NCBI GenBank assembly: GCA_023266055.1
Contig: JAHFRW010000005.1
Coordinates: 13,106-77,105 of the forward strand
From: Gammaproteobacteria bacterium
GTDB lineage: Bacteria; Pseudomonadota; Gammaproteobacteria; Ga0077554; Ga007554
Length of the DNA stretch: 64,000 nt
Direction of reading: 5' to 3'
Shown here: positions 1,396 through 48,857 of the stretch, in pieces
Layout of the letters: every line of letters begins with the position of its first letter
Numbering within the stretch: position 1 is the first letter of the stretch
Notes under the pieces: model-generated
Told to the model about the DNA's origin: nothing
What the model saw: the letters and a program-made list of their open reading frames with translations, nothing else
The model's database searches: none
Made by a program: the position numbers and the translations under genes

Positions 1396-1707
1396 ATGAG
1401 TAAACGAGATAAGACATACACGCCGGAATTTCGGTCGGAGGCAGTAAAGAGGGTATTAGAACAGGGACTCCGGCCAGAAGAGGCCGCCCATCGGCTGGGG
1501 ATTCCCAAGGGGACGTTGGCGGGTTGGATGGCCGCCGCGAAGTCGTCGAAAACACCCGCCGCCCCCGGCGCCCGCTCAGCGGGTGAACTTGAAGTGGAGA
1601 ATGCCCGGTTACGTAAAGAGTTGGTCGAGGCCCGGATGGAGCGCGACATCCTAAAAAAAGTGACGGCGTATTTTGCAAGGGAGTCATTGCCAGGTACGCG
1701 TTCATGA
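1396..1707 (+). CDS. IS3-family transposase OrfA (HTH DNA-binding part)
   Basis: MSKRDKTYTPEFRSEAVKRVLEQG...leucine-zipper-like C-terminus. RBS caggagag precedes the ATG at 1396. The ORF-track start at 1366 is probably too early. Confidence 0.85.
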   Translation: MSKRDKTYTPEFRSEAVKRVLEQGLRPEEAAHRLGIPKGTLAGWMAAAKSSKTPAAPGARSAGELEVENARLRKELVEARMERDILKKVTAYFARESLPGTRS

Positions 1708-2564
1708 AAGAGTGGCGACTCCAATTTCCCATCGAGACGATGAGCCGGGTATTTGAGGTATCGCGGAGCGGCTACTCCGACTGGCTCAAGCGCAAACCCT
1801 CGGCACGCGCCCAGGCGAACGAACAGTTGAAGATCGCGATTCGCGTTGCCCATAAGCGCTGCCGTGAAGTCTACGGGGCACTCCGCCTGCCACCCGAACG
1901 GGTGGCAGATGGGTTTATCGCGGGGCGGGATCGCATCATCAGGTTACGCAAGGAGAGGGGGATACGTTGTAAACAGAAACGTAAATTCATAGCGCCGACG
2001 AACTCGAATCACGCCTTGCCGGTTGCGCCGAACCTGCTGGAACAGAAGTTCAACGCCACGTGCCCGAATCAGGCGTGGGTGGCCGACATTACCTACATTC
2101 CCACCGAAGAGAGCTGGCTCTATCTGGCGGGGATAAAGGACCTGTTCAGTTGTCAGATCGTGGGCTATGCGATGGGGGCAAGGATGACGCAAGAGCTGAC
2201 AGGGCAGGCGCTCTTTCGTGCAGTGAAGAACAAACGACCGGAGGCAGGGTTGATCCACCACTCTGATCGAGGCAGTCAGTATTGCGCCCACGACTACCGC
2301 CGGATGGTAGAACAGTTTGGGATGCAGGCTTCCATGTCACGGCGCGGCAATTGCTATGACAATGCGCCAATGGAGAGCTTCTGGGGTAGCCTGAAAAATG
2401 AACTGGTGCATCATCGCCGTTACGCCACGCGCGCCGAGGCGGAGGCTTCGATCCGGGAGTACATCGAGATTTTCTATAACCGCCAACGACGCCACTCGCG
2501 CCTTGGCTATGTAGCACCGGCTGTGTTTGTGGATAGTTTCAACAAACAACAGGCCAGTGCTTGA
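1704..2564 (+). CDS. IS3-family transposase OrfB (DDE integrase core), made as an OrfAB fusion by -1 frameshifting
   Basis: 286-aa ORF with D..D..E integrase-core signatures (ADITYIPT...HSDRGSQY...DNAPMESFWGSLK). It sits in the -1 frame relative to orfA and overlaps the A7G motif. Confidence 0.85.
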   Translation: MKEWRLQFPIETMSRVFEVSRSGYSDWLKRKPSARAQANEQLKIAIRVAHKRCREVYGALRLPPERVADGFIAGRDRIIRLRKERGIRCKQKRKFIAPTNSNHALPVAPNLLEQKFNATCPNQAWVADITYIPTEESWLYLAGIKDLFSCQIVGYAMGARMTQELTGQALFRAVKNKRPEAGLIHHSDRGSQYCAHDYRRMVEQFGMQASMSRRGNCYDNAPMESFWGSLKNELVHHRRYATRAEAEASIREYIEIFYNRQRRHSRLGYVAPAVFVDSFNKQQASA

Positions 2565-5436: not shown

Positions 5437-5581
5437 TCTTCAATCAAAGGGGCTCTATGTGAAATACAGTGGGTAATCGAATTTCATCTTTCCACAGAGG
5501 AAGTAAATCATATTGATAACTGATGTTACGCGCCCCGCAGTGAGAAATTTGCTATCCTGCGGAGATGAAAAAAGCAGACCT

Positions 5582-5685
5582 TGAGGGCACCTCTAATAAT
5601 TAGAGGTGCCCGTGCGGTACAGGACGTGCCGCCATTTATCAATCTCTGCAAGAGATTGATAAATGAAGAAAAGAAAAAATCACAC
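5582..5685 (+). repeat. copy A of a ~104-bp structured intergenic repeat (two hairpins); its partner copy is at 44336-44439 in inverted orientation
   Basis: Hand alignment of the reverse complement of 5582-5685 against 44336-44439 gives about 90% identity. It contains GGGCACCTCTAATAATTAGAGGTGCCC and a 15-bp stem CATTTATCAATCTCT-gca-AGAGATTGATAAATG. Confidence 0.75.
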
Positions 5686-5702
5686 ATCAAAGGGGTCAGT
5701 CT

Positions 5703-5721
5703 CAATACTGTCCGGATAAAC
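5703..5721 (+). repeat. internal 19-bp copy of the unit's terminal repeat (CAATACTGTCCGGATAAAC, 1 mismatch), oriented like the left IR
   Basis: 18/19 match to CAATACTGTTCGGATAAAC within 1313-1334. Together with 5807-5828 it delimits a 126-bp MITE-like mini-element. Confidence 0.7.
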
Positions 5722-5806
5722 CATCCAAGCCAAAAATCCGTTCGGGCTGAGCTTGTCGAAGCCTGGCGTCACAGCGACTTCCCTTTGATAGGCTCAGGGC
5801 GAACAG

Positions 5807-5828
5807 GTTTATCCGAACAGTATTGGGT
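5807..5828 (-). repeat. right terminal inverted repeat of the katG unit
   Basis: GTTTATCCGAACAGTATTGGGT is the exact reverse complement of 1313-1334. Confidence 0.85.
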
Positions 5829-6128
5829 ATTGACCACCGTTTGCGAATTGCGCCAATGCACGGTGCCGGGATAGCCGATGGATAATTCATTACCGTCGCC
5901 CCAGCCGCGCTGGGGATCATGGCAGGTGGCACAGCTGGTGGTGGCATCACCCGAAAGGCGCGGATCGAAGAACAGCATTTTGCCAAGCTCAATTTTGGCG
6001 GGTGATTGCGGATTGCTTTCCAGTATGGGCACCGGCGGCAGGGCCGCCAGGGGATCAGATGCAACCGCGACGACCGGGAACGGGAGTAACAAGAGAGCGG
6101 CGCAGCGCGAGCGTAGAGCAATACGCAT
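5829..6128 (-). pseudogene. di-haem cytochrome c peroxidase, N-terminal fragment (signal peptide plus first haem CATCH), truncated by the insertion
   Basis: MRIALRSRCAALLLLPFPVVAVA...GKMLFFDPRLSGDATTSCATCHDPQRGWGDG...HWRNSQTVVNT, then read-through into the IR (QYCSDKP...*). RBS ttaaggagaac precedes the ATG at 6128. The ORF-track start at 6227 is too early. Confidence 0.75.
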
Positions 6129-11707: not shown

Positions 11708-12271
11708 ATGTTTAAATTGCGTTACGCTATTTTAGGTCTGTGCCTGCTCTCAACCAGCATCGCTTCTGCAAATCAGCCCATCCCATCACCCTATGCCGGA
11801 CAGGAGCAGCGCGATATAAAAGCCCTGTCACCGGATGAAATCAAAAGTTATCTGGCCGGCAGCGGCGCGGGCTTTGCAAAAGCTGCCGAGCTGAATCATT
11901 ACCCCGGTCCCGCACATGTACTGGCGTTATCACAACAACTTCAGCTTTCCCCCGAGCAACACGCCCGCACCGAGCAACAGTTCAATAGTATGCAAGCCGA
12001 CGCCATGCGGCTAGGCAAGGCGCTGGTCGAACAGGAACAATGGCTCGACACCTTATTTGCCACCGCCAGCATCAGCACAGACACGCTGCAATCCACCCTG
12101 AAGGACATTGCAACACTGCAAGCGCAGATACGCCAGGTTCATCTTGAGGCGCATCTGGTGCAAAAGACTATCCTGACCCCGGATCAGGTAAAGCATTATG
12201 ATGCATTGCGTGGGTATGGTGCGTCTGAAGATCGGGCGCCCGACCAGGGAACACATCATCATACGCATTAA
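11708..12271 (+). CDS. periplasmic LTXXQ-motif protein (Spy/CpxP/ZraP family) with His-rich C-terminus
   Basis: Signal peptide, two LxP[ED]Q motifs (LSPEQHARTEQ, LTPDQVKHYDAL), and C-terminal GTHHHTH. Confidence 0.55.
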   Translation: MFKLRYAILGLCLLSTSIASANQPIPSPYAGQEQRDIKALSPDEIKSYLAGSGAGFAKAAELNHYPGPAHVLALSQQLQLSPEQHARTEQQFNSMQADAMRLGKALVEQEQWLDTLFATASISTDTLQSTLKDIATLQAQIRQVHLEAHLVQKTILTPDQVKHYDALRGYGASEDRAPDQGTHHHTH

Positions 12272-12430
12272 CTTATGATGAATTATGCGCTGCTTCTATT
12301 ATCCTGACGCCGGAGCTCGGTGTGATGAGGCAAATCGCCTTTGTTGTTCGTGATATTGACAAGGCGATGGATGGCTGGACGCAGACGTTAAAGAGTAACC
12401 GTTACAACGATGTCGTGTAACCTTGCCGTC

Positions 12431-12721
12431 TTATTCTGGCTCAGGGTAGCGGTCACTGTGCCCCAGCGGCTTATCCGGTGCGATGCAATCACGCACCCGC
12501 TGTTTAAGTTCCTTGGATTCCGGGAAGTGGTTCTGAGCCTTGCGCGAGAAAATAATCTGATCGCCCAGCCGTACTTCAAAAATACCTCCGGTGCCCGGTA
12601 CCAGCGTGACCCCGCCCAGTTCGGTCTCGAACGTTACCAGCAGTTCCTGTGCCATCCATGCAGCGCGTAACAGCCAGCGGCATTGGGTGCAGTATTCAAT
12701 TTCCAGTCGTGGCTTGTTCAT
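12431..12721 (-). CDS. SelW/SelT/Rdx-family thioredoxin-fold redox protein (CxxC)
   Basis: MNKPRLEIEYCTQCRWLLRAAWMAQELL...GGIFEV...FPESKELKQRVRD is a typical Rdx signature. Confidence 0.8.
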   Translation of the reverse strand: MNKPRLEIEYCTQCRWLLRAAWMAQELLVTFETELGGVTLVPGTGGIFEVRLGDQIIFSRKAQNHFPESKELKQRVRDCIAPDKPLGHSDRYPEPE

Positions 12722-13704
12722 GGCGTCTCCGGTGTGCGCATCGCTTGCTGCGCAATAATCTGTTGCAGGGTTTCCTGATAGATTGTGAATAATGCGTTGC
12801 TGGGTGTGGTCAGGTGAATGGCTTGCCGCGCGGCATTTTCGGCAGCATGTAATTGACCCTGATCCGCCAGTGTTTGCGCAAGATTATTATAAGCGGGTGC
12901 AAAGCCCGGGTCTTGTTGTGTAACATGGCGATACGCTGCCTCAGCGCCACGCAGATCATGTAATGCATACCGGCTATTGCCCAGCCCCATGCGTGCGGTG
13001 ATGCTGTCCGGCCACTGTGTCAGTGCTGTCGTGTAGGCGGTGGCGGTATCCTGCCAGCGTTGCAGCCGCTCTAATGGCACCACAGCGTTCAGATAGGGAA
13101 TTTCCTCGGCGCTCACGGGTAAATGATCAGGTGTGGTGACGGTGATCGCCCAATAATCACCACGCCGCCAGGTGCGCTCAAATAGTTTGATAGGCACCAC
13201 GTGCCGCTGTTCTCGCCCGGAACGCAGAATGATCTGATCCTGCTGTAAATCAAAGCCCACCACCACAGCATAATGCCATTTCTGATACCAGCTCAGCCCG
13301 AGATTTTGCAGCACCAGCACCGGATGCCCGGCACGCACTTCGTTAATCAGCGTTTCCAGTTCGGGTCGTAACCCATAAGGAATGCGCCCGTGGCGACGCG
13401 TGGCGGCCAGCAACTCGATCTGTAAACTGCCCTGGCGCCCTGGCAGATACACCTGGGGAGCAAGGTTTTCAGGCGTAAGTTGTGTGCCCGACCAATTCAG
13501 CACCGTGGCCAGTGCCGCCGGGCCGCATTGAAATTCTTCCTGGGGAAAAAAGGGTACCGCTATGAGTTCTACAGGGGGCTGCTGTGCAGCAGGAGATTTC
13601 AGCAGTTGATAAGATTGCAGTGGCTGCGTTGCGCAGCCTGCCACCGCAAGCAGAGTCATCAACAAAACCACCCAGCCAATGCCGGGTGGTTGTACAGGCT
13701 TCAT
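12718..13704 (-). CDS. lipoprotein C39-like cysteine peptidase with C-terminal TPR repeats (PA2778-family-like)
   Basis: Lipobox LLAVAGC. QCGPAALATVLNW papain/C39-like catalytic Cys motif. TPR-like C-terminus (AYNNLAQTLADQGQLHAAE). 4-bp overlap with the downstream Rdx gene. Confidence 0.65.
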   Translation of the reverse strand: MKPVQPPGIGWVVLLMTLLAVAGCATQPLQSYQLLKSPAAQQPPVELIAVPFFPQEEFQCGPAALATVLNWSGTQLTPENLAPQVYLPGRQGSLQIELLAATRRHGRIPYGLRPELETLINEVRAGHPVLVLQNLGLSWYQKWHYAVVVGFDLQQDQIILRSGREQRHVVPIKLFERTWRRGDYWAITVTTPDHLPVSAEEIPYLNAVVPLERLQRWQDTATAYTTALTQWPDSITARMGLGNSRYALHDLRGAEAAYRHVTQQDPGFAPAYNNLAQTLADQGQLHAAENAARQAIHLTTPSNALFTIYQETLQQIIAQQAMRTPETP

Positions 13705-13713
13705 AAATGCGGG

Positions 13714-14121
13714 TTAGCGACGATGCTTTTTGACAAACGGAAAGACATCTGTCAAACCGAGGATATCGGTTACCAGGAGCACCAGAAAAATCAGCACAAT
13801 CACGCCCAGAATACTGTCACCGCCCGCCGGCAGCGAGTTCAATTGGTCGGCCAGTGCGTGAGTCTCCGTATCACTCAAGCTGTCCACGCGTGCCTTGGCT
13901 TGCTCCACCGTGACACCGTGGCTTATGAGTTGCTCCTGAATGTCCTTGCGATCCAGAAGATTCATGATCTGCACCCGGTCTTGCTGCACCTGTGCGGCGC
14001 TCACCAGCGTTTCGGTGCCTACAATGCTGGCGTGAGCGGCAGGCAATTGCAGCCCCAGCCAGAGAAAGCTGAAAATCACAAAATGACTAATGGGTTTGGC
14101 AATGCGGCGCAGATATTCCAT
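13714..14121 (-). CDS. small two-TM membrane protein (PA2779-family-like partner of the peptidase)
   Basis: MEYLRRIAKPISHFVIFSFLWLGLQLPAAHA...C-terminal hydrophobic LGVIVLIFLVLLVTDILGL. RBS aggaaagga precedes the ATG at 14121. The ORF-track start at 14166 is probably too early. Confidence 0.55.
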   Translation of the reverse strand: MEYLRRIAKPISHFVIFSFLWLGLQLPAAHASIVGTETLVSAAQVQQDRVQIMNLLDRKDIQEQLISHGVTVEQAKARVDSLSDTETHALADQLNSLPAGGDSILGVIVLIFLVLLVTDILGLTDVFPFVKKHRR

Positions 14122-14277
14122 GGCGATGTCCTTTCCTGTGTGAGATGCATGTTTAACAGACAGCATTATACCATGTTCGGGATATTGGGTAGCGTGGATA
14201 ACGCCGGGTCGGTGTTTCCCGCAACGTCGGCTAGGTATAATAGGATATCATTCTGAATGACAAATAAAAGGGTCGCC

Positions 14278-14685
14278 ATGTCCATCATTAAGCTGCCACG
14301 TCCACTGGTCAACGAGTTACTGCATCAGGCACAACGGGGGGCGGATTGTGAAGTATGTGGTTTGATCAGCGCCTGCAATGGCGTGCCAGCGCATTGTTAT
14401 CCCGTGCCCAACATTGCCGTTGCGCCACAGCAGCGCTTCAGCATGGATCCCAAAGCGCAAATTGACGCGTTACGCCACATGCGTGATCGTGGAGAAGATC
14501 TGTTCGCCATTTACCATTCCCACCCCACCGCTCCCGCCGCGCCGTCGGCAATGGATCGCGATGAAGCGGGTTATCCTGAAGTGCTTTATCTGATTATTTC
14601 CCTCAACACCCGAGGCGTGCTGGAAATGCGCGGGTTTTATATTCAAGATCAGAATGTGACAGAGGTGGCGCTGGAACTGCTTTAA
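14278..14685 (+). CDS. Mov34/MPN/JAB-domain (JAMM) metalloprotease family protein
   Basis: JAMM motif E..CG...(x)n...AIYHSHPTAPAAPSAMD (HxHx7Sx2D). A -10 TATAAT lies at 14236-14241. The ATG at 14278 has RBS aaaggg. Confidence 0.75.
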   Translation: MSIIKLPRPLVNELLHQAQRGADCEVCGLISACNGVPAHCYPVPNIAVAPQQRFSMDPKAQIDALRHMRDRGEDLFAIYHSHPTAPAAPSAMDRDEAGYPEVLYLIISLNTRGVLEMRGFYIQDQNVTEVALELL

Positions 14686-15162
14686 AACAGGATGTGCGGA
14701 ATCCATGACCCGGCAGTGTAACGTGGGCTGGATTAGGCGCGCCCGCCTGAAAAATGTATTTCAGCCTGGATGAGGCCGAGCATAGAATAAAAACTGATAC
14801 GGATACAGAAAACAACAATCTCGGTGCAATCCCAAGAGGTCACGAGGCCGGATAAACACGCCAGGGAGAGCGACGCGGAAGCGAGCGGTGGCGGGCAACC
14901 CCCGGATAGCCGAGGTTTCCCTGTTTTGTCGGAATGTGTGCGATAGCCCCCGTGTAGACAACATGGGGAAACAACGACAGGCGTAGCGGTCGCCGAGCGC
15001 AGTCATTTTGGGGGCGGGGATGTCCCAAAATGGTTCGCGAGCACGGCGACACACTTTAAATCAGAATCAGTATTGATTTTAAACAAAAAATAGAGTTAAA
15101 TCCGGCCTTAGGCCACCGCCTGATAAAATTTTAGGTATTTTGATTGATGTCTGCTTTTAGTT

Positions 15163-15591
15163 ATGTTCCCTGAGACTTCGCTTACTGTTCAGGTTTCTCA
15201 AGCCTATGTAGGCAAGTGGCTTGCTCTAACAGCCTGGCTGTCAAGTGCAATCCCTTTAGGTCTTGGTGCTTTTATGTGGCACTTCGGTTTTAATGCTGCA
15301 ATTGCATTTGGTGTAGCCATCACAGTTATTTTCTTGGCCTGGGTTCTATTACGAACTTACAGCCAGGGCCTGAAACAGGCTATTCACCTGCATCCGAACA
15401 AAATTATCTTTGACTACATCACTTACAAACAAGAATTATCGTTTGGGTCGCCTGGCGAGTGGCATATCAGCGAAGAGAAAGGCAATTGGAAAATTAAGTC
15501 TTTGTCCGACCAGTCTTTCAAGCTTGTGCCAAAGTCCGCCTTTCCCCAACTTAAAGCTATCGCCGGCAGGTTTTATGCAGCCGAAACATAA
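15163..15591 (+). CDS. hypothetical membrane protein (2 TM plus a small C-terminal soluble domain); first gene of the low-GC island
   Basis: 142 aa with hydrophobic segments ALTAWLSSAIPLGLGAFMW and AIAFGVAITVIFLAWVLL. AT-rich codon usage unlike the flanking genes. Confidence 0.55.
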   Translation: MFPETSLTVQVSQAYVGKWLALTAWLSSAIPLGLGAFMWHFGFNAAIAFGVAITVIFLAWVLLRTYSQGLKQAIHLHPNKIIFDYITYKQELSFGSPGEWHISEEKGNWKIKSLSDQSFKLVPKSAFPQLKAIAGRFYAAET

Positions 15592-15839
15592 CCCTGCGCT
15601 CAACACGGACGCCCTACTTGCCGCTTCGCGTCATTCCGGGCGCCGATTAGCACCACGTTGAGCCTGTAGAAAAACTCATTGCTGAGGATATATAATGTGA
15701 GAGTCAAGCAACCGGCTTCACTAGATGCTCTAGGGTCGACGATCTCAGTGGTGAGAGGGGGTTTAGTATCCCCTATTGTTGAGATTTTTTCGCCGGAAGT
15801 GGTTTTTCTACAGGCTCGTTAGATTGCAATGGAGTCATC

Positions 15840-16589
15840 ATGACAGCTCGAAGAATTAGCAATCTAGCTCAACTACTCCAAGGTCTGAAAGAGGATGTCG
15901 GCTCCTACAATGGATCATTATGGTTCCGTGGCCATTCAAACAGTAGTTGGCAGCTCCTCCCCGGCTACTTAAGACTGACGGATGCGCCATCCGAGGGAAC
16001 GCTGCTAAAGAGGTTCAAACAGAGCGCGGCCTTGCTTGTACATCGAGAGCCAAAGGATAGCTATGACTGGCTTTTTTTGATGCAACACTATGGGTTGCCA
16101 ACAAGACTTCTGGATTGGTCTGAAAGTCCCTTGGTCGCTCTGTATTTTGCAGTCAATGACGCACTAGCAGATCATGAAGGGGATTCTGCTCTCTGGGTAC
16201 TCAAGCCATCAGAGCTAAACAAAGAAGCGCACATCAATGATCAAAGTGAAGAGTTCTTTGTTCCTTCCTTTGAAGACGAAGAATTAAGCAACTACAAGCT
16301 GGAAACGCTCGCCGCTGGACCAAAACGAACACGTCTTCTGCCGATTGCCAGCATAGCAACTAGAAATAACTCACGGATACAGGCTCAGTTAGGTGCATTT
16401 ACCATTCATCATCTCGACAATATTGCACTTGAAGATGTAGGATCAAAAACGCATGTAATAAAGTATGAAATCCCGCCAAGTTCTCGCGATGTTTTCAGGC
16501 GCGAATTGAAGCTTCTTGGGTATTCAAAATTTTCTCTATTTCCAGAATTATCAAGCATCGGTGAAAATATTCGGAGCACGCTGAGATGA
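15840..16589 (+). CDS. FRG-domain protein
   Basis: N-terminal ...YNGSLWFRGHSNSSWQLLPGYLR is the eponymous FRG motif. 249 aa, low GC. RBS ggag precedes the ATG. The stop overlaps the next start (ATGA). Confidence 0.6.
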   Translation: MTARRISNLAQLLQGLKEDVGSYNGSLWFRGHSNSSWQLLPGYLRLTDAPSEGTLLKRFKQSAALLVHREPKDSYDWLFLMQHYGLPTRLLDWSESPLVALYFAVNDALADHEGDSALWVLKPSELNKEAHINDQSEEFFVPSFEDEELSNYKLETLAAGPKRTRLLPIASIATRNNSRIQAQLGAFTIHHLDNIALEDVGSKTHVIKYEIPPSSRDVFRRELKLLGYSKFSLFPELSSIGENIRSTLR

Positions 16590-17656
16590 GTTACATTGAA
16601 ACATTTCCAATGCAACACAGCACGATCATGCGTCTCTACTCAGAGAAGGATCTAATTAACGCAGATCCAGACTATCAGCGCGCCGGTGGAATTTGGACAC
16701 TTGAGAAAAAGCAACTACTCATCGACTCTATCCTAAATTCGTATGACATTCCAAAAATCTATCTTCATGCATTTACTCGAGAACAACGCAATCAAAATAA
16801 ATTCTATTATGCGATTATTGACGGCAAGCAAAGGCTAGAAGCAATATGGAAGTTCATGGAAGGAGAATTTGCTCTTTCACCAGATTTTGAATACCAAGAA
16901 GACACATCTATTAATCTTATGAGTCTTGGCTATAGTGATTTGGCTGCCTCATATCCGAAGTTGAAAATATATTTTGACTCATTCGTTCTTCCAATCGTGT
17001 GCGTCGAAACAGATGATATCGAATTGATCGAAGATATGTTTTCTCGCTTAAACGAAGCTGTCCCGCTAAATTCTGCTGAAAAAAGAAATGCAATTGGTGG
17101 CGATTTAGTCGCTGCAATTCGTGATACCTCATTGCACCCTCTTTTTCAGAGTAAAGTTTCTTTTAGTAATCGCAGATTTCAACATCGAGAAGTTTCGGCA
17201 CGCCTACTATTGATTGAACATAATCTAATTATGTTTGGTAAAATAGCAGATACAAAAAAAATCCATCTTGATTCTCTTGCGAGAAATTACAAAAGCGGAA
17301 AAGAGTCAGAAGTTTATAATCTTAAAATTCTAGTTAAAAATAATTTGGATCTCATGGACACATTATTTGTCGATGAAGATGAATTATTACACGCACAGGG
17401 AAGTATTGCCCTGTACTATTTATTAGTGAAAAATGCCAAAGCGTTGTCGTACACTCTTACTCGCGCAAAAATATTTGAATTCAGGGAAGCAGTTCGCCAG
17501 AATCGAGCCTCGGCAGAGCGAGAGTACGAAAACGCCAACTTTGAACTTCTAGAGTACGACCGTCTTTCCCAACAGGGTACAAATGACGCATCGAATCTTC
17601 GTGAGAGGCTCAGGATAATCTGCGGCTTTATGGATATTGCGCCGGTTGCAATCTAA
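16586..17656 (+). CDS. DUF262 (ParB/Srx-like NTPase, GmrSD-N/SspE-N/DndB-like) domain protein without a DUF1524/HNH nuclease domain
   Basis: DPDYQRAGGIWTLEKKQLLIDSILNSYDIPKIYL...YYAIIDGKQRLEAIW (DGQQR-type motif). The C-terminal ~200 aa are helical with no recognisable nuclease motif. Translationally coupled to the FRG gene. Confidence 0.65.
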   Translation: MSYIETFPMQHSTIMRLYSEKDLINADPDYQRAGGIWTLEKKQLLIDSILNSYDIPKIYLHAFTREQRNQNKFYYAIIDGKQRLEAIWKFMEGEFALSPDFEYQEDTSINLMSLGYSDLAASYPKLKIYFDSFVLPIVCVETDDIELIEDMFSRLNEAVPLNSAEKRNAIGGDLVAAIRDTSLHPLFQSKVSFSNRRFQHREVSARLLLIEHNLIMFGKIADTKKIHLDSLARNYKSGKESEVYNLKILVKNNLDLMDTLFVDEDELLHAQGSIALYYLLVKNAKALSYTLTRAKIFEFREAVRQNRASAEREYENANFELLEYDRLSQQGTNDASNLRERLRIICGFMDIAPVAI

Positions 17657-17809
17657 CAATTCGTTCAAGCCGACCCTGAACATCCCCCGATTTAGCAGAC
17701 ACAAACGTCTACCTGAATCGGAGAAAGAGAAAGCCAAAATATCAGTAACACAAGAAGACCCCTCGATACAGCAATGAATTTAAAACCAAAGCCGTCCAGC
17801 TGAGTTTAA

Positions 17810-18268
17810 ATGGATGGCGTCCAGGTCCAGGTAGTCGCCAAGACATTAGATATCCATCCCTTTATGCTGTCACGCTGGCGTAAAGAATATCGGCAGGGAA
17901 AGATCGTGCCAGACAAGCGCAAAAAGGTTGTCAGTCTCAAGCAAGAAAAAGTCGAGATGGACAAGATTAAGCGGCTAGACAATGAAAATGTACGCTTAAG
18001 ACAGGAAAATGACCGACTAAAAAAGGGGCAACGGTTTCTCGCGGAGGAACAACAGCGAGATTCCGATGCATCCACCGATATGGAAAAGAACCAGACATCA
18101 AATATCTGTGTGACTGGTTACAAGTGTCCCGCGGTGGCTATTATGCCGGGCGAGATCGGCCCCTATCATCTCGCGCAAAAGAAGACACTATGCTGTGAAG
18201 CAGGATACGTGACATTCATCAGGAAAACCGGGGTATCTATGGTAGCCCAAGAGTCTACAAAGCATTAA
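17810..18268 (+). pseudogene. IS3-family orfA fragment (frameshifted)
   Basis: See above. The N-terminus is missing from this frame. Confidence 0.7.
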
Positions 18269-18371
18269 AAAGCGAGGGTATTGCAGTTGGTAAGAAACGT
18301 GTCGAGCGATTGATGCGTGAACATGATCTAAAAGGGCGCGTCGTCAAAGTGACACGACGGATGTTAATCAA

Positions 18372-18848
18372 GTGTGGGAATCTGATATCACCTCTATCAA
18401 AGTAAAGGGCGTCTATAAGCATCTGATAGTGATTATGGACATCTACTCACGCAAGATACGGGGCTGGTCATTAAGCCATACAAGAACCAGCAAGGATACC
18501 GTGACAGTCCTGAAACGGGTAATCAAGGCACGTTCACCAAGTGAAGCGATGATATTCCATACTGACAGAGGCATAGAATTCACCGGCCAGCCGTTCAGGA
18601 AGGAGCGCCAAAAACATGGCATACGACCCAGTGTTAATCGGTCTGGCAAGTGTACAGATAATGGCCATATGGAATCATTCTTCCATAACTTAAAGGCCGA
18701 GCGGATACGTGGCAGAGTATATGGAACGATGAGCGACCCAAGGGGAGCCTTGAATGGATATATCAATCAGTTCTACAATCGGAAACGAATGCACTCAGGG
18801 ATTGGCTATTTATCACCTGTAGAATATGAAGAGAGAGTAGTAGAATAA
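18372..18848 (+). pseudogene. IS3-family orfB integrase-core fragment
   Basis: DDE core motifs. Lacks its N-terminal part in-frame. Confidence 0.7.
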
Positions 18849-18908
18849 TGCGCGTGTCTATTTTATCGGGGGAAGATCAAGGCGGCACCCTGTTGTTTCA
18901 GCGCTTTT

Positions 18909-20357
18909 TTAGCCGCCCAGCTTTTTCTTCAGCAGTTCGTTCAACAGCGCCGGGTTCGCCTTGCCCTGCGTGGCTTTCATTGCCTGACCGACGAAGAAGC
19001 CGAACAGTTTTTCCTGCCCGCCATGATATTGTTCAAGCTGTTTAGGGTTGTTGGCAACAACAGCGTTGATGGCGGCTTCAATTGCGCCGGTGTCTGTGAC
19101 CTGCTTCAAACCTTTTTTCTCGATTACGGTGTCAGCATCACCTTCGCCATTCCACATCGCCTCGAATACTTCCTTGGCGATTTTGCCGGAGATGGTGTTG
19201 TCGGAGATGCGTTGGATCATGCCGCCTAGCCTATGTGCGGTGACCGGGCTGGCGGTGATGTCGAGGTTGGCTTTATTCAAGGCGCCGGATAAGTCGCCCA
19301 TCACCCAGTTGGCGGCGAGCTTGGCCGTGCCGCCAGACGCTTTTTCAGTCACCTCAAAAAAGTCGGCGAGTTCGCGACTGGCAGTGAGCACGCTGGCATC
19401 GTAGGGGGTGAGTCCGAATTGATGTACAAAGCGCTCGCGTTTTTCATCGGGTAATTCGGGCAGGGTTTTGCGCGTGGCTTCGATGAAGGCATCATCCAGA
19501 ATTACCGGCAATAAATCCGGGTCAGGGAAGTAACGGTAGTCCATCGCTTCTTCCTTGCTGCGCATGGAGCGGGTTTCGTCCTTGTTGGCATCGTACAGGC
19601 GCGTTTCCTGAATGACGGTGCCGCCGCGCTCCAGAAGATCCGTTTGCCGCTCGATTTCGTAATTAATGGCGCGTTCCACAAAACGGAAGGAGTTGATGTT
19701 TTTGATTTCTGCGCGAGTGCCGAATTTTCCCTGACCCTTGGGGCGCATGGAGACGTTGGCGTCGCAACGGAATGAACCTTCCTGCATGTTGCCGTCACAG
19801 ATTTCGAGGTAACGTACCAGCGAGTGAATTTTTTTCATGTAGGCGACGGCTTCTTTGGCGGAGCGCAAATCAGGTTCCGACACGATTTCCAGCAGCGGTG
19901 TTCCCGCGCGATTCAGGTCAACACCGGTCAGATCATGAAAGTCTTCATGCAATGATTTGCCGGCATCTTCTTCGAGGTGCGCGCGTGTGATGCCGATGGT
20001 TTTTCCAATCGTGTTGCCGGCACCGTCATCCAGCTGAATTTCCAGTGTACCTTGCGCGACGATGGGCAGCTCGTACTGGCTGATCTGGTAGCCTTTGGGC
20101 AGGTCGGGGTAAAAATAATTCTTGCGCGCAAATACCGAGCGTGGCGCAATTTTGCAGCCGGTGGCCAAGCCAAATTTTACTGCCATACGCACTGCTTCGG
20201 CATTCAATACTGGCAACACGCCGGGCATGCCCAGATCAACGACGCAGGCTTGTGTGTTGGGTGCCGCGCCATAGGCGGTGGCTGCGCCTGAGAAGATCTT
20301 GCTTTTGGTGGCAAGTTGGGCGTGAATTTCAAGACCGATGACGACTTCCCATTCCAT
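18909..20357 (-). CDS. gatB: Asp-tRNA(Asn)/Glu-tRNA(Gln) amidotransferase subunit B
   Basis: [25 protein letters not shown]...full-length GatB. The start is at the conserved MEWEVV. The track's 20390 start adds 11 residues. Confidence 0.9.
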
Positions 20358-20442
20358 TTTATTTAGAATCTCTATCTGTTGTTGAGCCACGAAGCGCCTG
20401 GAGAAGAATGGTTTTATGGAATCTCTGCATGTGCGTGGTTAA

Positions 20443-21897
20443 TTACTTAAAGCCTTCCGGGGCACGTTGATGCCAATCCGTGACCTGCTGGTATTTATGC
20501 GCCGTATTTAACAGCCGCGCTTCATCAAAATAATTGCCGATAATCTGTAGTCCCACCGGACGCTGGCCGACAAACCCTGCCGGTATCGACATGCCGGGTA
20601 GACCTGCAAGGTTGACGGCGATGGTGTAGATGTCAGACAGGTACATGGTTACCGGGTCAGCAAGTTTTTCGCCCAGGTTAAAGGCGACGGTGGGTGATGT
20701 GGGGCCCATGATGACATCCACTTGTTTGAATGCCTGTGTAAAATCTTCGCTGATCAGGCGGCGCAATTGTTGTGCTTTCAGGTAATAGGCGTCGTAGTAG
20801 CCTGCCGATAACGCATAGGTGCCGATCATGATGCGGCGTTTGACTTCGGCGCCAAAGCCTTCGCCACGCGAGCGTTTGTAAAGGTCGGCGAGGTCTTTGG
20901 GGTCTGTGCAGCGATAGCCAAAGCGCACGCCGTCGAAACGCGACAGATTGGATGAGCATTCGGCAGGTGCGACGACATAATAAGTCGGCACCGAGAGCAT
21001 GGTGTTGGGCAGTGTGATGTCGACAATCTCGGCACCCAGTGCGCGGTATTGTTTGATGGCATCGTCGATGACTTTACCCACCTGGGCATCCAGACCCTTG
21101 CCGAAATATTCTCTGGGCAGGCCGATTTTCAGACCTTGCAGCGGGTTATTGAGGTTGGCGCGGTAGTCTGGCACGGGTGTGTCTACGCTGGTGGAGTCGA
21201 GCGCATCAAAACCGGCCATGGCGCCGAGCAGTATGGCGCAATCTTCAGCGCTGCGCGCCATGGGCCCGGCCTGGTCAAGGCTGGAGGCAAATGCGATCAT
21301 GCCGTAGCGCGATACGCGGCCATAGGTGGGTTTGATGCCGGTAATGCCGCACAATGCCGCTGGCTGACGAATCGAGCCGCCAGTGTCCGTGCCGGTGGCG
21401 GCGGGTGCGAGGCGCGCGGCGACCACGGCGGCTGAGCCACCCGATGAGCCGCCGGGCACGGCGTTGAGATCCCACGGGTTACGCACCGGACCGTAGAAAC
21501 TGGTTTCGTTGGACGAGCCCATGGCGAATTCATCCATGTTGGCTTTGCCCAGCATGACGGTGCCCGCGTCTTTCAGTTTGATGACGGTGGTGGCGTCATA
21601 GGGGGCGATGAAGTTATCGAGCATCTTCGAGCCACAGGTGGTTTTTACGCCCAGTGTGCAGAAAATATCTTTTTGAATGAGGGGAATGCCGGTGAGCGGC
21701 CCGGCTGTGCCACGCGCCAGTTGCGCATCGGCATGGCGCGCGCTGGTCAAGGCTTGTTCGCCGGTCAGTGTTACCAGTGCATTAAGCTGTGGGTTGAATT
21801 TATCGATACGCGCCAGAAAGGTGCGCGTCAGTTCTTCGCTGGAGTATTTTTTTGCATGTAAGTCAGCGGATAATTCAACGATAGTTTTATTGTGCAT
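20443..21897 (-). CDS. gatA: Asp-tRNA(Asn)/Glu-tRNA(Gln) amidotransferase subunit A (amidase)
   Basis: [28 protein letters not shown]...amidase signature [13 protein letters not shown]. The ORF-track start at 21972 is a TTG read as M. Confidence 0.9.
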
Positions 21898-22220
21898 TGG
21901 TTCTTGTATGAGGTTGTGAGCAAGAAAGCCGTGTGGTGCCAGGCATTTTTTAATTATCCCATGTTGCCACAATTATTAAAACCCGGCAGGGATTAATTGT
22001 GGATTCATGAAATTGGCAGGTTGCTGGATGGTGGGCGCACAGGTCCTGTTGGACTGGAAAGGCCGGACACGGTACGTACGATCACGTGCATCGTTCAAAG
22101 AAAAGCGGTATGGTTGGAATATCCTGGCGGCGCCTATTCATGACCTGCGCAAAAAAACGGGGTCAATTGATGGGGTGTGAAATGTGGGTGGCGTGAATAT
22201 CCACGGTCTTTCGTTGGTCG

Positions 22221-46189: not shown

Positions 46190-47122
46190 ATGCCCATTAA
46201 AAAACGCGGCCTGGGCAGAGGGTTGGATGCCCTGCTGGGGAGTATCGCATCTTCCCGTCCCATGCCCGGCGATGAGCCTCCCGATCATCCCTCCGGTGTG
46301 CAGACAGACGAATTGCGGCAACTGCCGGTCGATCTGATCCAGCGTGGCAAATACCAGCCGCGCACCGACATGCGCACGGAAAGCCTGGAAGATCTCGCCA
46401 GCTCCATCCGCGCCCAGGGTGTCGTTCAGCCTATTGTGGTGCGCCTGTTGCCGCCTGTGCCGGGGCGTGAGGCGTCACTGGCGCCGCGTCGTTACGAGAT
46501 CATTGCCGGTGAGCGTCGCTGGCGCGCTGCCCAGCTGGCGGGCTTGCAGGACATTCCTGCCATTGTGCGAGATGTGCCTGACGCCGCCGCCATTGCCATG
46601 GCGCTCATCGAGAATATCCAGCGCGAAAACCTCAGCCCCATGGAAGAGGCCGTTGCGTTGCAGCGACTGATTGACGAATTTCAGATGACTCACCAGGACG
46701 CCGCCGATGCGGTGGGCCGTTCGCGCGCTGCTGTCACCAATCTGCTGCGACTGCTGGGGCTGGTGGATGATGTGAAGCGCATGGTTGCGCGCGGTGGCCT
46801 GGAAATGGGCCATGCGCGTGCCCTGCTCGGACTGGAGGGCGCCGCCCAGCTTGCAGCGGCCCGGCAAGTGGTGGCGCAAAAATTGTCAGTGCGTGAAACT
46901 GAGCAATTAGTGCGCCGCATGCAACAATCCGGCGCGCCGCGCGCCGCGTCAGACAAGTCAAGCATGGTGCCGGATCCCAATATTCGCAATTTACAGGAAA
47001 ATTTGTCGGCAAAAATAGGCGCGAAGGTCGATATACAGTACACTCAGCGTGGCAAGGGCAAGCTGGTGATCCATTACGGCAGTCTCGACGAATTGGATGG
47101 CATTTTAGAGCACATTAAATAG
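46190..47122 (+). CDS. parB: chromosome partitioning protein ParB/Spo0J
   Basis: MPIKKRGLGRGLDALLG...ParB box IIAGERRWRAAQLAG, HTH and dimerisation domains. Confidence 0.92.
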   Translation: MPIKKRGLGRGLDALLGSIASSRPMPGDEPPDHPSGVQTDELRQLPVDLIQRGKYQPRTDMRTESLEDLASSIRAQGVVQPIVVRLLPPVPGREASLAPRRYEIIAGERRWRAAQLAGLQDIPAIVRDVPDAAAIAMALIENIQRENLSPMEEAVALQRLIDEFQMTHQDAADAVGRSRAAVTNLLRLLGLVDDVKRMVARGGLEMGHARALLGLEGAAQLAAARQVVAQKLSVRETEQLVRRMQQSGAPRAASDKSSMVPDPNIRNLQENLSAKIGAKVDIQYTQRGKGKLVIHYGSLDELDGILEHIK

Positions 47123-47277
47123 CCTCTGGCGTTTCCCGTTGAGCGATTCCCCGTCAGTGGATGGCGGATGCGGGCCAAAAAGGCGCGCTTTTTTGCGGCT
47201 TCAGGGTTGTGGCGCACCTGTCTCGGGTGTTAGAATGCCGCCCGTCTTTTTCTTTGTTTGCCTTGGTGTGATGCGAG

Positions 47278-47478
47278 ATGAAAAACCCGCCCCGCGTAGG
47301 CCTGTTGCTGGTGGGTGTTGGCACCCACATGGCGGCGATGGTCATCATGGGTTTCGTGCTGGGCTATGCGCTGGACGCCTGGCTGGGTAGCCAGCCGTGG
47401 TTTATGCTGCTTCTGGGTGGAATGGGGTTTGTAGGTGGAATCCTCAAGGCGCATAAGATGTTGAGCAGATGGGGTTAG
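47278..47478 (+). CDS. AtpZ/AtpI-family small membrane protein preceding the F-ATPase operon
   Basis: 66 aa, two TM helices, position immediately 5' of atpI. Confidence 0.6.
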   Translation: MKNPPRVGLLLVGVGTHMAAMVIMGFVLGYALDAWLGSQPWFMLLLGGMGFVGGILKAHKMLSRWG

Positions 47479-47879
47479 TCCTGAACAACGCAAGGGATGA
47501 CGCAAGCGGTGCCGGGCAAGATACGGCCAGGCAAACCCGCAGCATTATCGCTGCACAGATCGTGATCGGTGCATTGGTGGCGGCAGGATTTGGCATGGCC
47601 CACGGCATGGCGGGTGCGCAGGCGGCATTATATGGCGCGTTTGTCAGCGTATTTGTTGCCACCCTGTTGCGGCGCGGCATAAATCGCGCCAGCCAGATTG
47701 CCGGGCAAGACCCGAAAACAGCCATGCTGACGCTTTACGTGGGCGCCGTGGTGCGCTTTGTGCTGGTGCTGATACTGTTTGGTGTAGGGCTGGCAGGGTT
47801 AAAGCTTTTGCCGTTGCCCGTGATTGTCGGGTTTGGTCTGGCGCAGTGTGCGTACCTGATAGGCATGCGCCGGGCATGA
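47469..47879 (+). CDS. atpI: ATP synthase protein I
   Basis: 136-aa four-helix membrane protein directly upstream of atpB. Confidence 0.65.
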   Translation: MGLVLNNARDDASGAGQDTARQTRSIIAAQIVIGALVAAGFGMAHGMAGAQAALYGAFVSVFVATLLRRGINRASQIAGQDPKTAMLTLYVGAVVRFVLVLILFGVGLAGLKLLPLPVIVGFGLAQCAYLIGMRRA

Positions 47880-47972
47880 TGCGCGGCGCGTACCGCCGCT
47901 CCCGGCAAGTGTTGGATAAAAAAGAATTTGCAGAGGTTACCGGGCATGAATGGTCAGGTGATCCGGTTATAA

Positions 47973-48857
<885 letters not shown>

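Follow-up and report, generated by a model that had tools for sequence, protein, structure and literature searches.

An FRG-DUF262 gene pair in a stranded integron cassette as a candidate two-gene defence system

The low-GC stretch next to gatB, in the 64-kb window, is best read as what is left of an integron cassette array, with a gene pair encoding an FRG-domain protein and a DUF262 protein as its main cargo. The two genes are passed on and evolve together, with their translational coupling conserved, and the unit moves horizontally between phyla. With moderate confidence, we regard the two-gene operon, contained in one integron cassette, as most likely a sensor-plus-effector pair directed against phages or other invading DNA. 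What is new here is the strict co-inheritance of the pair, its origin as an integron cassette and the full-length likeness of the DUF262 protein to NsnA. The region contains the following features:

15163-15591, forward strand: small ORF of 142 aa with two hydrophobic segments; a separate cassette, outside the conserved unit
15598-15663, forward strand: complete attC-like site of 66 nt, GCTCAAC...GTTGAGC (RYYYAAC...GTTRRRY, hairpin), from the strict attC finder
15658-15817, forward strand: ORF-less segment with a perfect 16-nt inverted repeat (15660-15675 / 15802-15817)
15818-15829, forward strand: 5' cassette boundary GTTAGATTGCAA, containing the attC core GTTAGAT (GTTRRRY); complement of 17646-17657
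15840-16589, forward strand: FRG-domain protein (PF08867), 249 aa, predicted effector
16586-16589, forward strand: ATGA shared by the FRG stop and the DUF262 start (overlap, translational coupling)
16586-17656, forward strand: nuclease-less DUF262 protein (PF03235), 356 aa, NsnA-like, predicted sensor
17646-17673, forward strand: 3' cassette boundary and 5' attC half, TTGCA-ATCTAAC then AATTCGTTCAAGCCGA, with the inverse core RYYYAAC
17674-18882, forward strand: decayed IS3-family element inserted in the attC, with inverted repeats at 17674-17702 and 18854-18882

The FRG gene was found directly upstream of the DUF262 homologue in 78 of 80 species-level genomes, spanning Pseudomonadota, Bacteroidota, Nitrospirota, Desulfobacterota, Omnitrophota and other phyla, and in one of the two exceptions an IS has truncated the FRG gene. 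Conservation of the pair elsewhere, which the original prediction had named as a test of its reading, is thus borne out, and the ATGA overlap on which it had based coupled translation is present in the window and kept as a 4-nt [AG]TGA overlap in 67 of 79 loci, the remainder lying within 9 nt with one uncertain case excepted. The identity matrices of the two proteins correlate (r = 0.87), a value reached by 0 of 1000 Mantel permutations, over pairwise identities of 45-95% and 40-97%, respectively, and the pairing is still present at 43%/36% and at 34-39%/28-31% identity. Both genes encode entire proteins and not parts of larger ones, as homologues are uniformly about 249 aa (FRG) and about 356 aa (DUF262) and no FRG-DUF262 fusion was detected among the top 120 matches to a concatenated query, where a fusion would rank first. 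The translational coupling by itself suggests that the two proteins may form a physical complex.

Among 948 flanking ORFs, only the FRG and DUF262 genes are conserved, with no third conserved gene in 81 loci. The small membrane ORF, which the original prediction had counted into a possible three-gene system, is missing from 80 of 80 related loci and was therefore rejected as a component, leaving a two-gene unit. This ORF is bracketed by an 8-nt inverted repeat, GTTATGTT (15161-15168) and AACATAAC (15584-15591), and had no match in Pfam, PADLOC, NCBIfam or PHROG. In a collection of 185,579 species genomes, 223 stretches held a confirmed relative, a sporadic distribution. Many of the loci are solitary insertions amid housekeeping or metabolic genes, not defence islands; in P. 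fluorescens R124 the pair adjoins McrBC, Dcm and Vsr, and in Alcaligenes it adjoins an integrase and a Dcm/Vsr/McrC-like island. The frequent families around the loci, among those listed, include Vsr, Dcm, mad2/mad3, integrase and AAA_21.

Base composition sets the region apart from its surroundings. The segment 15056-17673 has a GC content of 42.6% (FRG gene 45.3%, DUF262 gene 38.7%, small ORF 45.2%), compared to 54.7% at 12000-15055, 54.9% at 18909-22000 and 52.5% for the window overall, so that the abrupt drop described originally stands with its flanks corrected from about 58% to about 55% GC. The three same-strand ORFs had been placed exactly. No tRNA or tmRNA was found within the window and no tyrosine recombinase or integrase in a scan of ten ORFs of 286-348 aa, in agreement with the absences first noted. 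A scan against Rfam yielded no family, its sole weak match being a chance lncRNA, and neither the tRNA/tmRNA nor the Rfam scan gave an explanation for the island borders or the GC-rich spacer at 14686-15055. An empty-site comparison found no JAB protein on record and gatB only on this same contig, and two exact-pattern metagenome scans for an island-free relative gave no match. The original prediction recognised no mobility mechanism, having overlooked the cassette boundaries and attC sites; an integron remnant would explain an island with neither integrase nor tRNA.

The site at 15598-15663 is the sole match in the 64-kb window (dG -13.4/-17.6) to a strict attC finder that combines consensus cores with single-stranded DNA folding and yields 0.075 matches per shuffled locus. 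In a cassette, the bases after the 5' GTTRRRY should pair with the 3' RYYYAAC region of that same cassette, and in the window GTTAGATTGCAA (15818-15829) and TTGCAATCTAAC (17646-17657) are perfect complements (12/12). The GTTAGATTGCAA boundary is identical in the L003/L006 array cassette, and homology to L006 starts there and stops at 17673. In L003, a related metagenome-assembled genome, the same cassette sits within a 30-attC array whose boundaries give 7.3/8 matches to the next attC versus 4.6/8 to their own, and co-varying boundaries were found in 14 of 73 loci versus 1.5 expected. At the 3' end of the pair, the inverse core RYYYAAC overlaps the TAA stop of the DUF262 gene, and TAACAATTCGTTCAAGCCGA, which matches the L003 attC consensus exactly, has its only copy in the window here (0.03 expected). 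The first 23 nt of the pair's attC (17651-17673) remain, cut by the IS; the orthologous L003/L006 cassette has a complete attC of 107 nt, and complete attCs also lie 3' of the pair in L019, L025, L030, L036 and L073. A covariance model built from the L003 attC sites was too family-specific, detecting just two short attCs elsewhere and missing the truncated site in the window. The window thus holds one complete and one truncated attC; an integron calls for an intI integrase in the vicinity, and a CALIN is defined by at least two attC sites without intI (bioRxiv 10.1101/2025.06.18.660453).

The IS3-family assignment of the element that cut this attC held, with Pfam matches to HTH_Tnp_1 (orfA, HTH) and rve/rve_2/rve_3 (orfB, DDE rve) and both reading frames broken by extra frameshifts; its extent, given originally as 17700-18860, is widened to 17674-18882 by the inverted repeats. 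The element has a GC content of 46.2% and ends 26 nt from the gatB stop (18909), and its insertion removed the rest of the attC and any further cassettes. The ORF-less segment at 15658-15817 is probably a small cassette that has lost its own attC. Within it, a promoter-like site at 15667-15696 (TAGAAA-18-TATAAT, 10/12 consensus match) faces the FRG gene, and the stranded copy may be transcribed from this site.

Experiments have established that integron cassettes serve as reservoirs of defence systems (bioRxiv 10.1101/2024.07.02.601719; 10.64898/2026.03.17.712381), and two-gene defence cassettes are known, such as the cassette in V. cholerae W6G that encodes a DndB-like and an unknown protein (10.64898/2026.03.17.712381). 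The FRG-DUF262 cassette likewise carries two genes between GTTRRRY/RYYYAAC cores with an attC site, although the window copy differs in that it is stranded outside an integron and an IS has cut its attC. No mention of FRG or DUF262 cassettes was found in the searchable integron-cassette literature.

The FRG call is upheld by the PF08867 profile (E=1.4e-25, residues 27-111, 90.5 bits versus a cut-off of 25). Plasmids, temperate phages and chromosomes all commonly carry this domain, and a 2020 article by Burroughs and Aravind in J Bacteriol is reportedly the source cited for Frg as a predicted effector. In PADLOC, the protein matched 14 PDC-S15 models (best E=3.6e-52) and no others; PDC-S15 denotes a candidate for phage defence by a single FRG-domain gene (bioRxiv 10.1101/2024.01.29.577857), and Frg has been placed by the Aravind group in the ADP-ribosyltransferase (ART) superfamily as a predicted NADase effector (PMC9503650), so that the partner is not as wholly uncharacterised as originally thought. 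In the clade studied here, FRG differs from the PDC-S15 definition in being obligatorily paired with a DUF262 gene. The FRG structure model shows weak similarity to the ART fold, and its best structural neighbours are ART-fold toxins and effectors (DarT, RES/ParT, MbcT, Tpt1/KptA and bacterial ADP-ribosylating toxins), not nucleases, although they have no detectable sequence similarity to the FRG protein and such toxins are paired with a macrodomain or Xre antitoxin rather than a ParB-like NTPase. Across 35 FRG homologues, Pfam searches at E up to 10 detected no ART family and no nuclease family, and no nuclease motif was seen. If the fold is that of an ART, the usual catalytic glutamate position appears from the alignment to be occupied by Q-x-Q (Q181, Q183).

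The DUF262 assignment is likewise secure (PF03235, GmrSD_N/DUF262; E=1.4e-16, residues 25-169, 61.6 bits versus a cut-off of 33.2), with the motifs Q31-R32...W37, D79-G80-x-Q82-R83 and F152...N156 invariant in 23 homologues. GmrSD_N is the sole Pfam match, with no DUF1524/HNH or any other domain, as expected from the originally proposed lack of a nuclease in the C-terminal half. The protein consists of a ParB-type NTPase domain followed by a helical C-terminal domain; that half, helical as first described, is not anonymous, given that the protein matches the PADLOC NsnA profile along its full length (E=5.6e-26, residues 4-345 on profile positions 46-375 of 385). In the literature, the NsnA-type architecture is given as ParB-DUF262 with a ParBDB DNA-binding domain (PMC12065111). 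In addition, phrog_2598 covers the protein at full length. NCBIfam had no model for the FRG protein, the DUF262 protein or the small ORF, no sequence relatives of either paired protein were found among solved structures, and the DUF262 structure model was poor in its N-terminal half, leaving the fold search uninformative.

Comparison with named systems places the pair near several of them and within none. NsnA of Menshen (NsnABC), a predicted sensor (PMC12065111), has in common with the 356-aa protein the ParB-type DUF262 domain, the QR...W, DGxQR and FxxxN motifs, a helical C-terminus and the lack of DUF1524; however, Menshen also has the NsnB ABC-ATPase and the NsnC effector, neither of which is at the window locus (neighbours FRG, small ORF and IS), and its partners are downstream whereas FRG is encoded upstream. 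GmrSD, BrxU and SspE share the N-terminal DUF262 NTPase module, which on sensing modified DNA activates the effector attached to it (PMC10952713, PMC12065111), but they carry a fused or adjacent DUF1524/HNH, and in place of a fused nuclease effector the 356-aa protein has FRG, a separate ART-fold-like protein, as its sole conserved neighbour. PD-T4-2 and Dazbog likewise consist of two genes, a DUF262 protein without DUF1524 and a non-HNH partner. The DUF262 protein matched PD-T4-2_A weakly (2.2e-14, PADLOC), and PD-T4-2_B has a HEPN domain (PMC10952713) whereas FRG matches PDC-S15 only; neither protein matched a PADLOC model of Dazbog (DzbA, DzbB) at E up to 0.1. FRG-DUF262 does not conform to the multi-gene definition of Menshen, PD-T4-2, Dazbog or GmrSD, the four compared, and the original statement that no named defence system has this pairing agrees with its absence from the PADLOC v2 multi-gene models and the searchable literature, an earlier in-silico mention being possible.

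Experimental work identifies DUF262 as the NTPase sensor in SspE and GmrSD (PMC12065111, PMC10952713), and DUF262 genes are required for defence by Menshen and Dazbog (PMC12065111, PMC10952713). By analogy, the DUF262 protein, whose ParB-type NTPase site is intact and whose C-terminal domain resembles that of NsnA, would bind DNA and hydrolyse NTP to report foreign or modified nucleic acid, as in GmrSD, BrxU and SspE. It would keep FRG in a complex and then release or activate it, and FRG, as a predicted ART-fold enzyme, would use up NAD+ or ADP-ribosylate a target, whereupon phage replication would be stopped or the infected cell arrested.

The same genes could instead form a toxin-antitoxin (addiction) cassette, in which an ART-fold FRG toxin (like DarT, ParT/RES or MbcT) is neutralised by the DUF262 protein and which mainly stabilises the array or host locus rather than sensing phage. 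We consider this unlikely, even though the pair is a compact operon of overlapping genes with patchy horizontal distribution, such cassettes are typical of chromosomal integron arrays (a YoeB/YefM pair occurs in the same L003 array) and the toxins RES, DarT, MbcT and ParT are among the FRG structural neighbours. At 356 aa the putative antitoxin is large, its gene is the downstream one and its NTPase site is invariant, and for these reasons it is better understood as a sensor or regulator than as a simple neutraliser; its homology to NsnA, too, is homology to a predicted sensor. Toxin-antitoxin and abortive-infection functions can coexist.

A split type IV-like restriction enzyme, with DUF262 recognising modified DNA and FRG an unrecognised nuclease in place of DUF1524/HNH, would suit the occurrence of DUF262 as the N-terminal module of GmrSD, BrxU and SspE (PMC10952713) and the several loci adjoining genes for Dcm/Vsr and McrBC, likewise concerned with modified DNA. 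This reading is highly improbable in light of an FRG protein that lacks nuclease motifs and nuclease-family matches and resembles ARTs structurally, and of a DUF262 protein nearer to NsnA than to GmrSD-type models. It is also quite improbable that the pair serves no defence role (e.g., DNA- or nucleoid-associated modification or regulation) or that the window copy is an inert, stranded and perhaps unexpressed passenger. Many loci are solitary amid metabolic genes, and the window copy no longer lies in an integron context and shows a promoter match at consensus level only; however, neither ORF is disrupted, strong purifying selection acts on both across phyla, the distribution is sporadic and the GC content is atypical for the host, features that fit accessory conflict genes, not housekeeping. 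A more far-reaching and tentative form of the preferred sensor-plus-effector reading is that FRG-DUF262 may be a widespread unnamed immune system, spread between phyla as an integron cassette, in which a ParB-like NTPase, on sensing DNA that is invading or modified, activates an ART-fold enzyme with an unusual active site (possibly R-S-Q in place of R-S-E or H-Y-E), and this enzyme either depletes NAD+ or adds ADP-ribose to nucleic acid or protein.

Nuclease-less DUF262 proteins are needed in Menshen, Dazbog and PD-T4-2. As a strongly conserved two-protein unit of 1.86 kb with an obligate partner, FRG-DUF262 would offer a tractable model for the control of a separate effector by a ParB-type NTPase sensor and for the role of FRG. 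It also illustrates concretely that a candidate defence system of more than one gene can travel in a single cassette, and that IS insertion into the attC of a cassette can leave it stranded in the chromosome. If the tentative reading is true, the FRG domain would gain its first assigned function, and this would be the first instance in which a DUF262 sensor drives an NAD+-dependent effector.

The segment between the JAB-domain gene and gatB shows the abrupt fall in GC content that had been described, to 42.6% at 15056-17673 and 38.7% in the DUF262 gene (window mean 52.5%), with flanks at ~55% rather than the predicted ~58%. It contains the three same-strand ORFs of the original prediction, namely a small 142-aa ORF (15163-15591) with no Pfam match and the FRG and DUF262 genes, both of whose domain calls were confirmed by Pfam profiles. 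The main features are as follows.

15840-16589, + strand, FRG protein gene (Pfam PF08867, E=1.4e-25)
16586-17656, + strand, GmrSD_N/DUF262 protein gene (PF03235, E=1.4e-16, residues 25-169)
17674-17702 and 18854-18882, inverted repeats of a decayed IS3-family copy with HTH_Tnp_1 and rve domains

The genes of the pair are coupled through the predicted ATGA overlap. No tRNA, tmRNA or Rfam family was found in the window and no tyrosine recombinase among ten scanned window ORFs of 286-348 aa, in agreement with the earlier statement that the island has neither an integrase nor an adjacent tRNA. Upstream of the island are a C39-like peptidase/TPR lipoprotein gene, a DUF6627 gene and the prokaryotic JAB-domain gene (12718-14685), followed by ~370 nt of GC-rich DNA (14686-15055) with no convincing ORF and no Rfam family even at relaxed thresholds, perhaps native to the intergenic space, derived from a decayed gene or left over from an attI/intI region. 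At 46190-48857 a canonical chromosomal ParB gene (ParB_N, HTH_ParB, ParB_C) precedes the beginning of the ATP synthase operon, which marks the window as ordinary core chromosome. Apart from sharing a superfamily, this ParB and the DUF262 protein are unrelated.

The pair is a conserved two-gene unit. When one genome from each of 185,579 species was scanned, relatives were confirmed in 223 stretches, and 80 of these were retrieved for analysis. The proposed check for co-occurrence elsewhere found the pair in 78 of these 80 loci, with the FRG homologue ending exactly where the DUF262 gene starts. The genes overlap by 4 nt ([AG]TGA) at 67 of 79 loci; elsewhere the distance between them is mostly 9 nt or less. 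Both families are tight: DUF262 homologues span 349-363 aa with 57-100% identity among the best 120 matches (from Pseudomonadota, Bacteroidota and Spirochaetota), and FRG homologues span 244-265 aa with 56-93% identity. Pairwise identities among the FRG proteins track those among the DUF262 proteins (matrix correlation r=0.87, a value reached in 0 of 1000 Mantel permutations), so the partners are co-inherited and have not been shuffled among lineages. All-against-all clustering of 948 flanking ORFs recovered only FRG and DUF262 as conserved genes, which places the small membrane ORF outside the unit and removes it as the suggested third gene of the system.

Two loci depart from the pairing. 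In Franzmannia pantelleriensis (L027, 141-368) the last 17 FRG codons remain, fused to an IS66-like fragment, beside an intact DUF262 gene, making this locus a natural "sensor-only" derivative. Only in a Bacteroidota MAG (L040, 5529-7071) is FRG missing altogether beside an intact DUF262 gene; there, a non-coding stretch of ~470 nt follows prfA, and a gene for a Dcm-type methylase comes immediately downstream. No fused FRG-DUF262 protein was found among close relatives, and no close homologues in the plasmid and phage record collections. The pair is still together at 43%/36% identity on viral contigs (only 7 loci in 2.9 million) and at 34-39%/28-31% identity on a Ralstonia megaplasmid and a Hymenobacter plasmid. 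On the Ralstonia solanacearum megaplasmid (L086, 1897-3744), the distant pair has a gene for a NERD-UvrD helicase fusion 400 nt upstream and is followed by an IS5 element.

The boundaries of the unit were delimited by comparison with its closest relative, in a gammaproteobacterial MAG (L003/L006; 93% identity for FRG, 83% for DUF262). Homology runs from ~22 nt 5' of the FRG start codon to 17 nt past the DUF262 stop, and a perfect 12-nt inverted repeat lies exactly at these limits, GTTAGATTGCAA (15818-15829) and TTGCAATCTAAC (17646-17657). GTTAGAT matches the attC core site GTTRRRY of integron cassettes, and ATCTAAC, which overlaps the TAA stop, matches the inverse core RYYYAAC. L003 contains 30 attC-type repeats of 107-112 nt each within 17 kb, of the form RYYYAAC-TATTCGTTCAAGCCGA...CGGCTTAACTCAGGT-GTTRRRY, and the pair fills one cassette between two of them. 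This array behaves as an integron should: the bases that come after a GTT core fit the inverse-core region of the following attC (mean 7.3/8, 14 of 27 perfect) rather than that of their own attC (mean 4.6/8, none perfect). The same array also carries a YoeB/YefM toxin-antitoxin cassette (5531-6033) and a repeated ~370-nt cassette in 8-10 copies.

In the window, TAACAATTCGTTCAAGCCGA after the DUF262 stop is an exact match to the L003 attC consensus and the sole copy in 64 kb, where 0.03 would be expected. A complete 66-nt attC was detected at 15598-15663, just past the small ORF, with a strict attC finder (0.075 matches per locus in shuffled controls), and the small ORF is flanked by GTTATGTT and AACATAAC. 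A 16-nt inverted repeat (15660-15675/15802-15817) encloses a segment that has a promoter-like site and no ORF, and 15660-15817 is probably a small cassette whose own attC has been lost. Elsewhere, in 14 of 73 other loci, the pair lies between the arms of a GTT-anchored inverted repeat that is 7 nt or longer, compared with 1.5 expected from permuting loci (never more than 6 in 500 permutations), and the repeat arms co-vary across loci (GTTATATTTCAA, GTTAGCAGAA, GTTAGCTATA, GTTATAGCGC and others). Complete attC hairpins lie 3' of the pair at six loci (L006, L019, L025, L030, L036 and L073); most of the remaining loci have no integron cassette signature, and in Methyloversatilis and Mucilaginibacter the pair is solitary among housekeeping genes. 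The island is thus an integron cassette remnant, which accounts for its low GC, the lack of an integrase and tRNA, and the tight boundaries of a unit that moves horizontally as a cassette.

The predicted IS3-family copy was confirmed by its domains, and its reading frames are disrupted by extra frameshifts; its inverted repeats extend it from 17700-18860 to 17674-18882, leaving only 26 nt to the gatB stop. Since the attC match breaks off at 17673, where the element begins, the IS inserted into the attC of the cassette and the remaining array is gone. In L003 (12768-13980), one attC likewise stops after ~50 nt and gives way to an IS3-family element (rve 12845-13498, HTH_Tnp_1 13693-13980). This recurrence of the same kind of event suggests that an IS3-group element tends to target attC sites for insertion. 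A second IS3-family element in the window (1704-2564), with an apparently intact OrfB (286 aa; HTH_21, rve, rve_2, rve_3), is not similar to the decayed copy at the DNA level.

R-S-E-type ADP-ribosyltransferases (ARTs) have the motif layout R / S-x-S / [QE]-x-E, which the invariant FRG residues W28-x-R30-G31, S94-E95-S96 and Q181-A-Q183 presumably resemble. No sequence-level link from FRG to ART families was found. Fold matches of the AF2 model of the FRG protein (pLDDT 67.8, pTM 0.70) are weak, and each of the best eight from Foldseek (E of at least 0.78) is an ART toxin or DarT; these weak model-based matches appear strikingly one-sided toward ART. The Aravind group places Frg in the ADP-ribosyltransferase superfamily, as what may be an NADase effector (PMC9503650). 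Distant FRG proteins also occur without DUF262. On conjugative plasmids, their genes have type I RM genes and a CBASS phospholipase gene as neighbours. Others form the C-terminal half of 454-456-aa proteins (phrog_4962) of two temperate phages, the P2-like Peduovirus P22H1 (L095, 320-1684) and Escherichia phage PhiR11_1 (L096, 2003-3373), behind a ~190-aa unannotated N-terminal region. Such occurrence apart from DUF262 is as expected of a modular effector. In PhiR11_1, the FRG-bearing gene is followed by one for a 350-aa protein without a Pfam match.

The DUF262 protein has an intact NTPase site, is nuclease-less as predicted, with no nuclease domain in the Pfam search, and is homologous to NsnA, the predicted sensor of Menshen (NsnABC). 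The locus differs from Menshen itself in lacking NsnB and NsnC, from PD-T4-2 in lacking a HEPN partner, from GmrSD-type enzymes in lacking DUF1524, and from Dazbog in giving no profile matches. PDC-S15 is matched on the FRG side only, its models being the only PADLOC matches of the FRG protein; it is one of 145 candidates, picked because members are embedded in BREX, DISARM or type I RM loci (bioRxiv 10.1101/2024.01.29.577857). As had been proposed, the pairing fits none of these named multi-gene systems, and no paper in the library searched links FRG with DUF262. The locus is therefore best described as a putative DUF262 sensor with a different predicted effector; the Menshen study itself described DUF262-centred systems as "not limited to" those it named.

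The best-supported reading of the pair is a sensor-plus-effector module, in which the NsnA-like ParB-type NTPase would recognise foreign or modified DNA and control the FRG effector, probably within a physical complex, and the effector may act on NAD+ or transfer ADP-ribose, with defence as the predicted outcome. The context supports this reading: McrBC, Dcm and Vsr adjoin the pair in P. fluorescens R124, and in Alcaligenes it adjoins an integron-unrelated integrase and a Dcm/Vsr/McrC-like island. Experiments have also established that integron cassettes can harbour defence systems (10.1101/2024.07.02.601719; 10.64898/2026.03.17.712381), a two-ORF cassette with a DndB-like protein among them. 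The rival readings are a toxin-antitoxin addiction cassette, a split type IV-like restriction enzyme, and a non-defence or inert function.

The FRG-DUF262 unit is one candidate among many, yet an unusually clean and tractable one. Well defined and widespread, it is a candidate of relevance to both phage defence and integron research, and might reveal a first function for the FRG domain.
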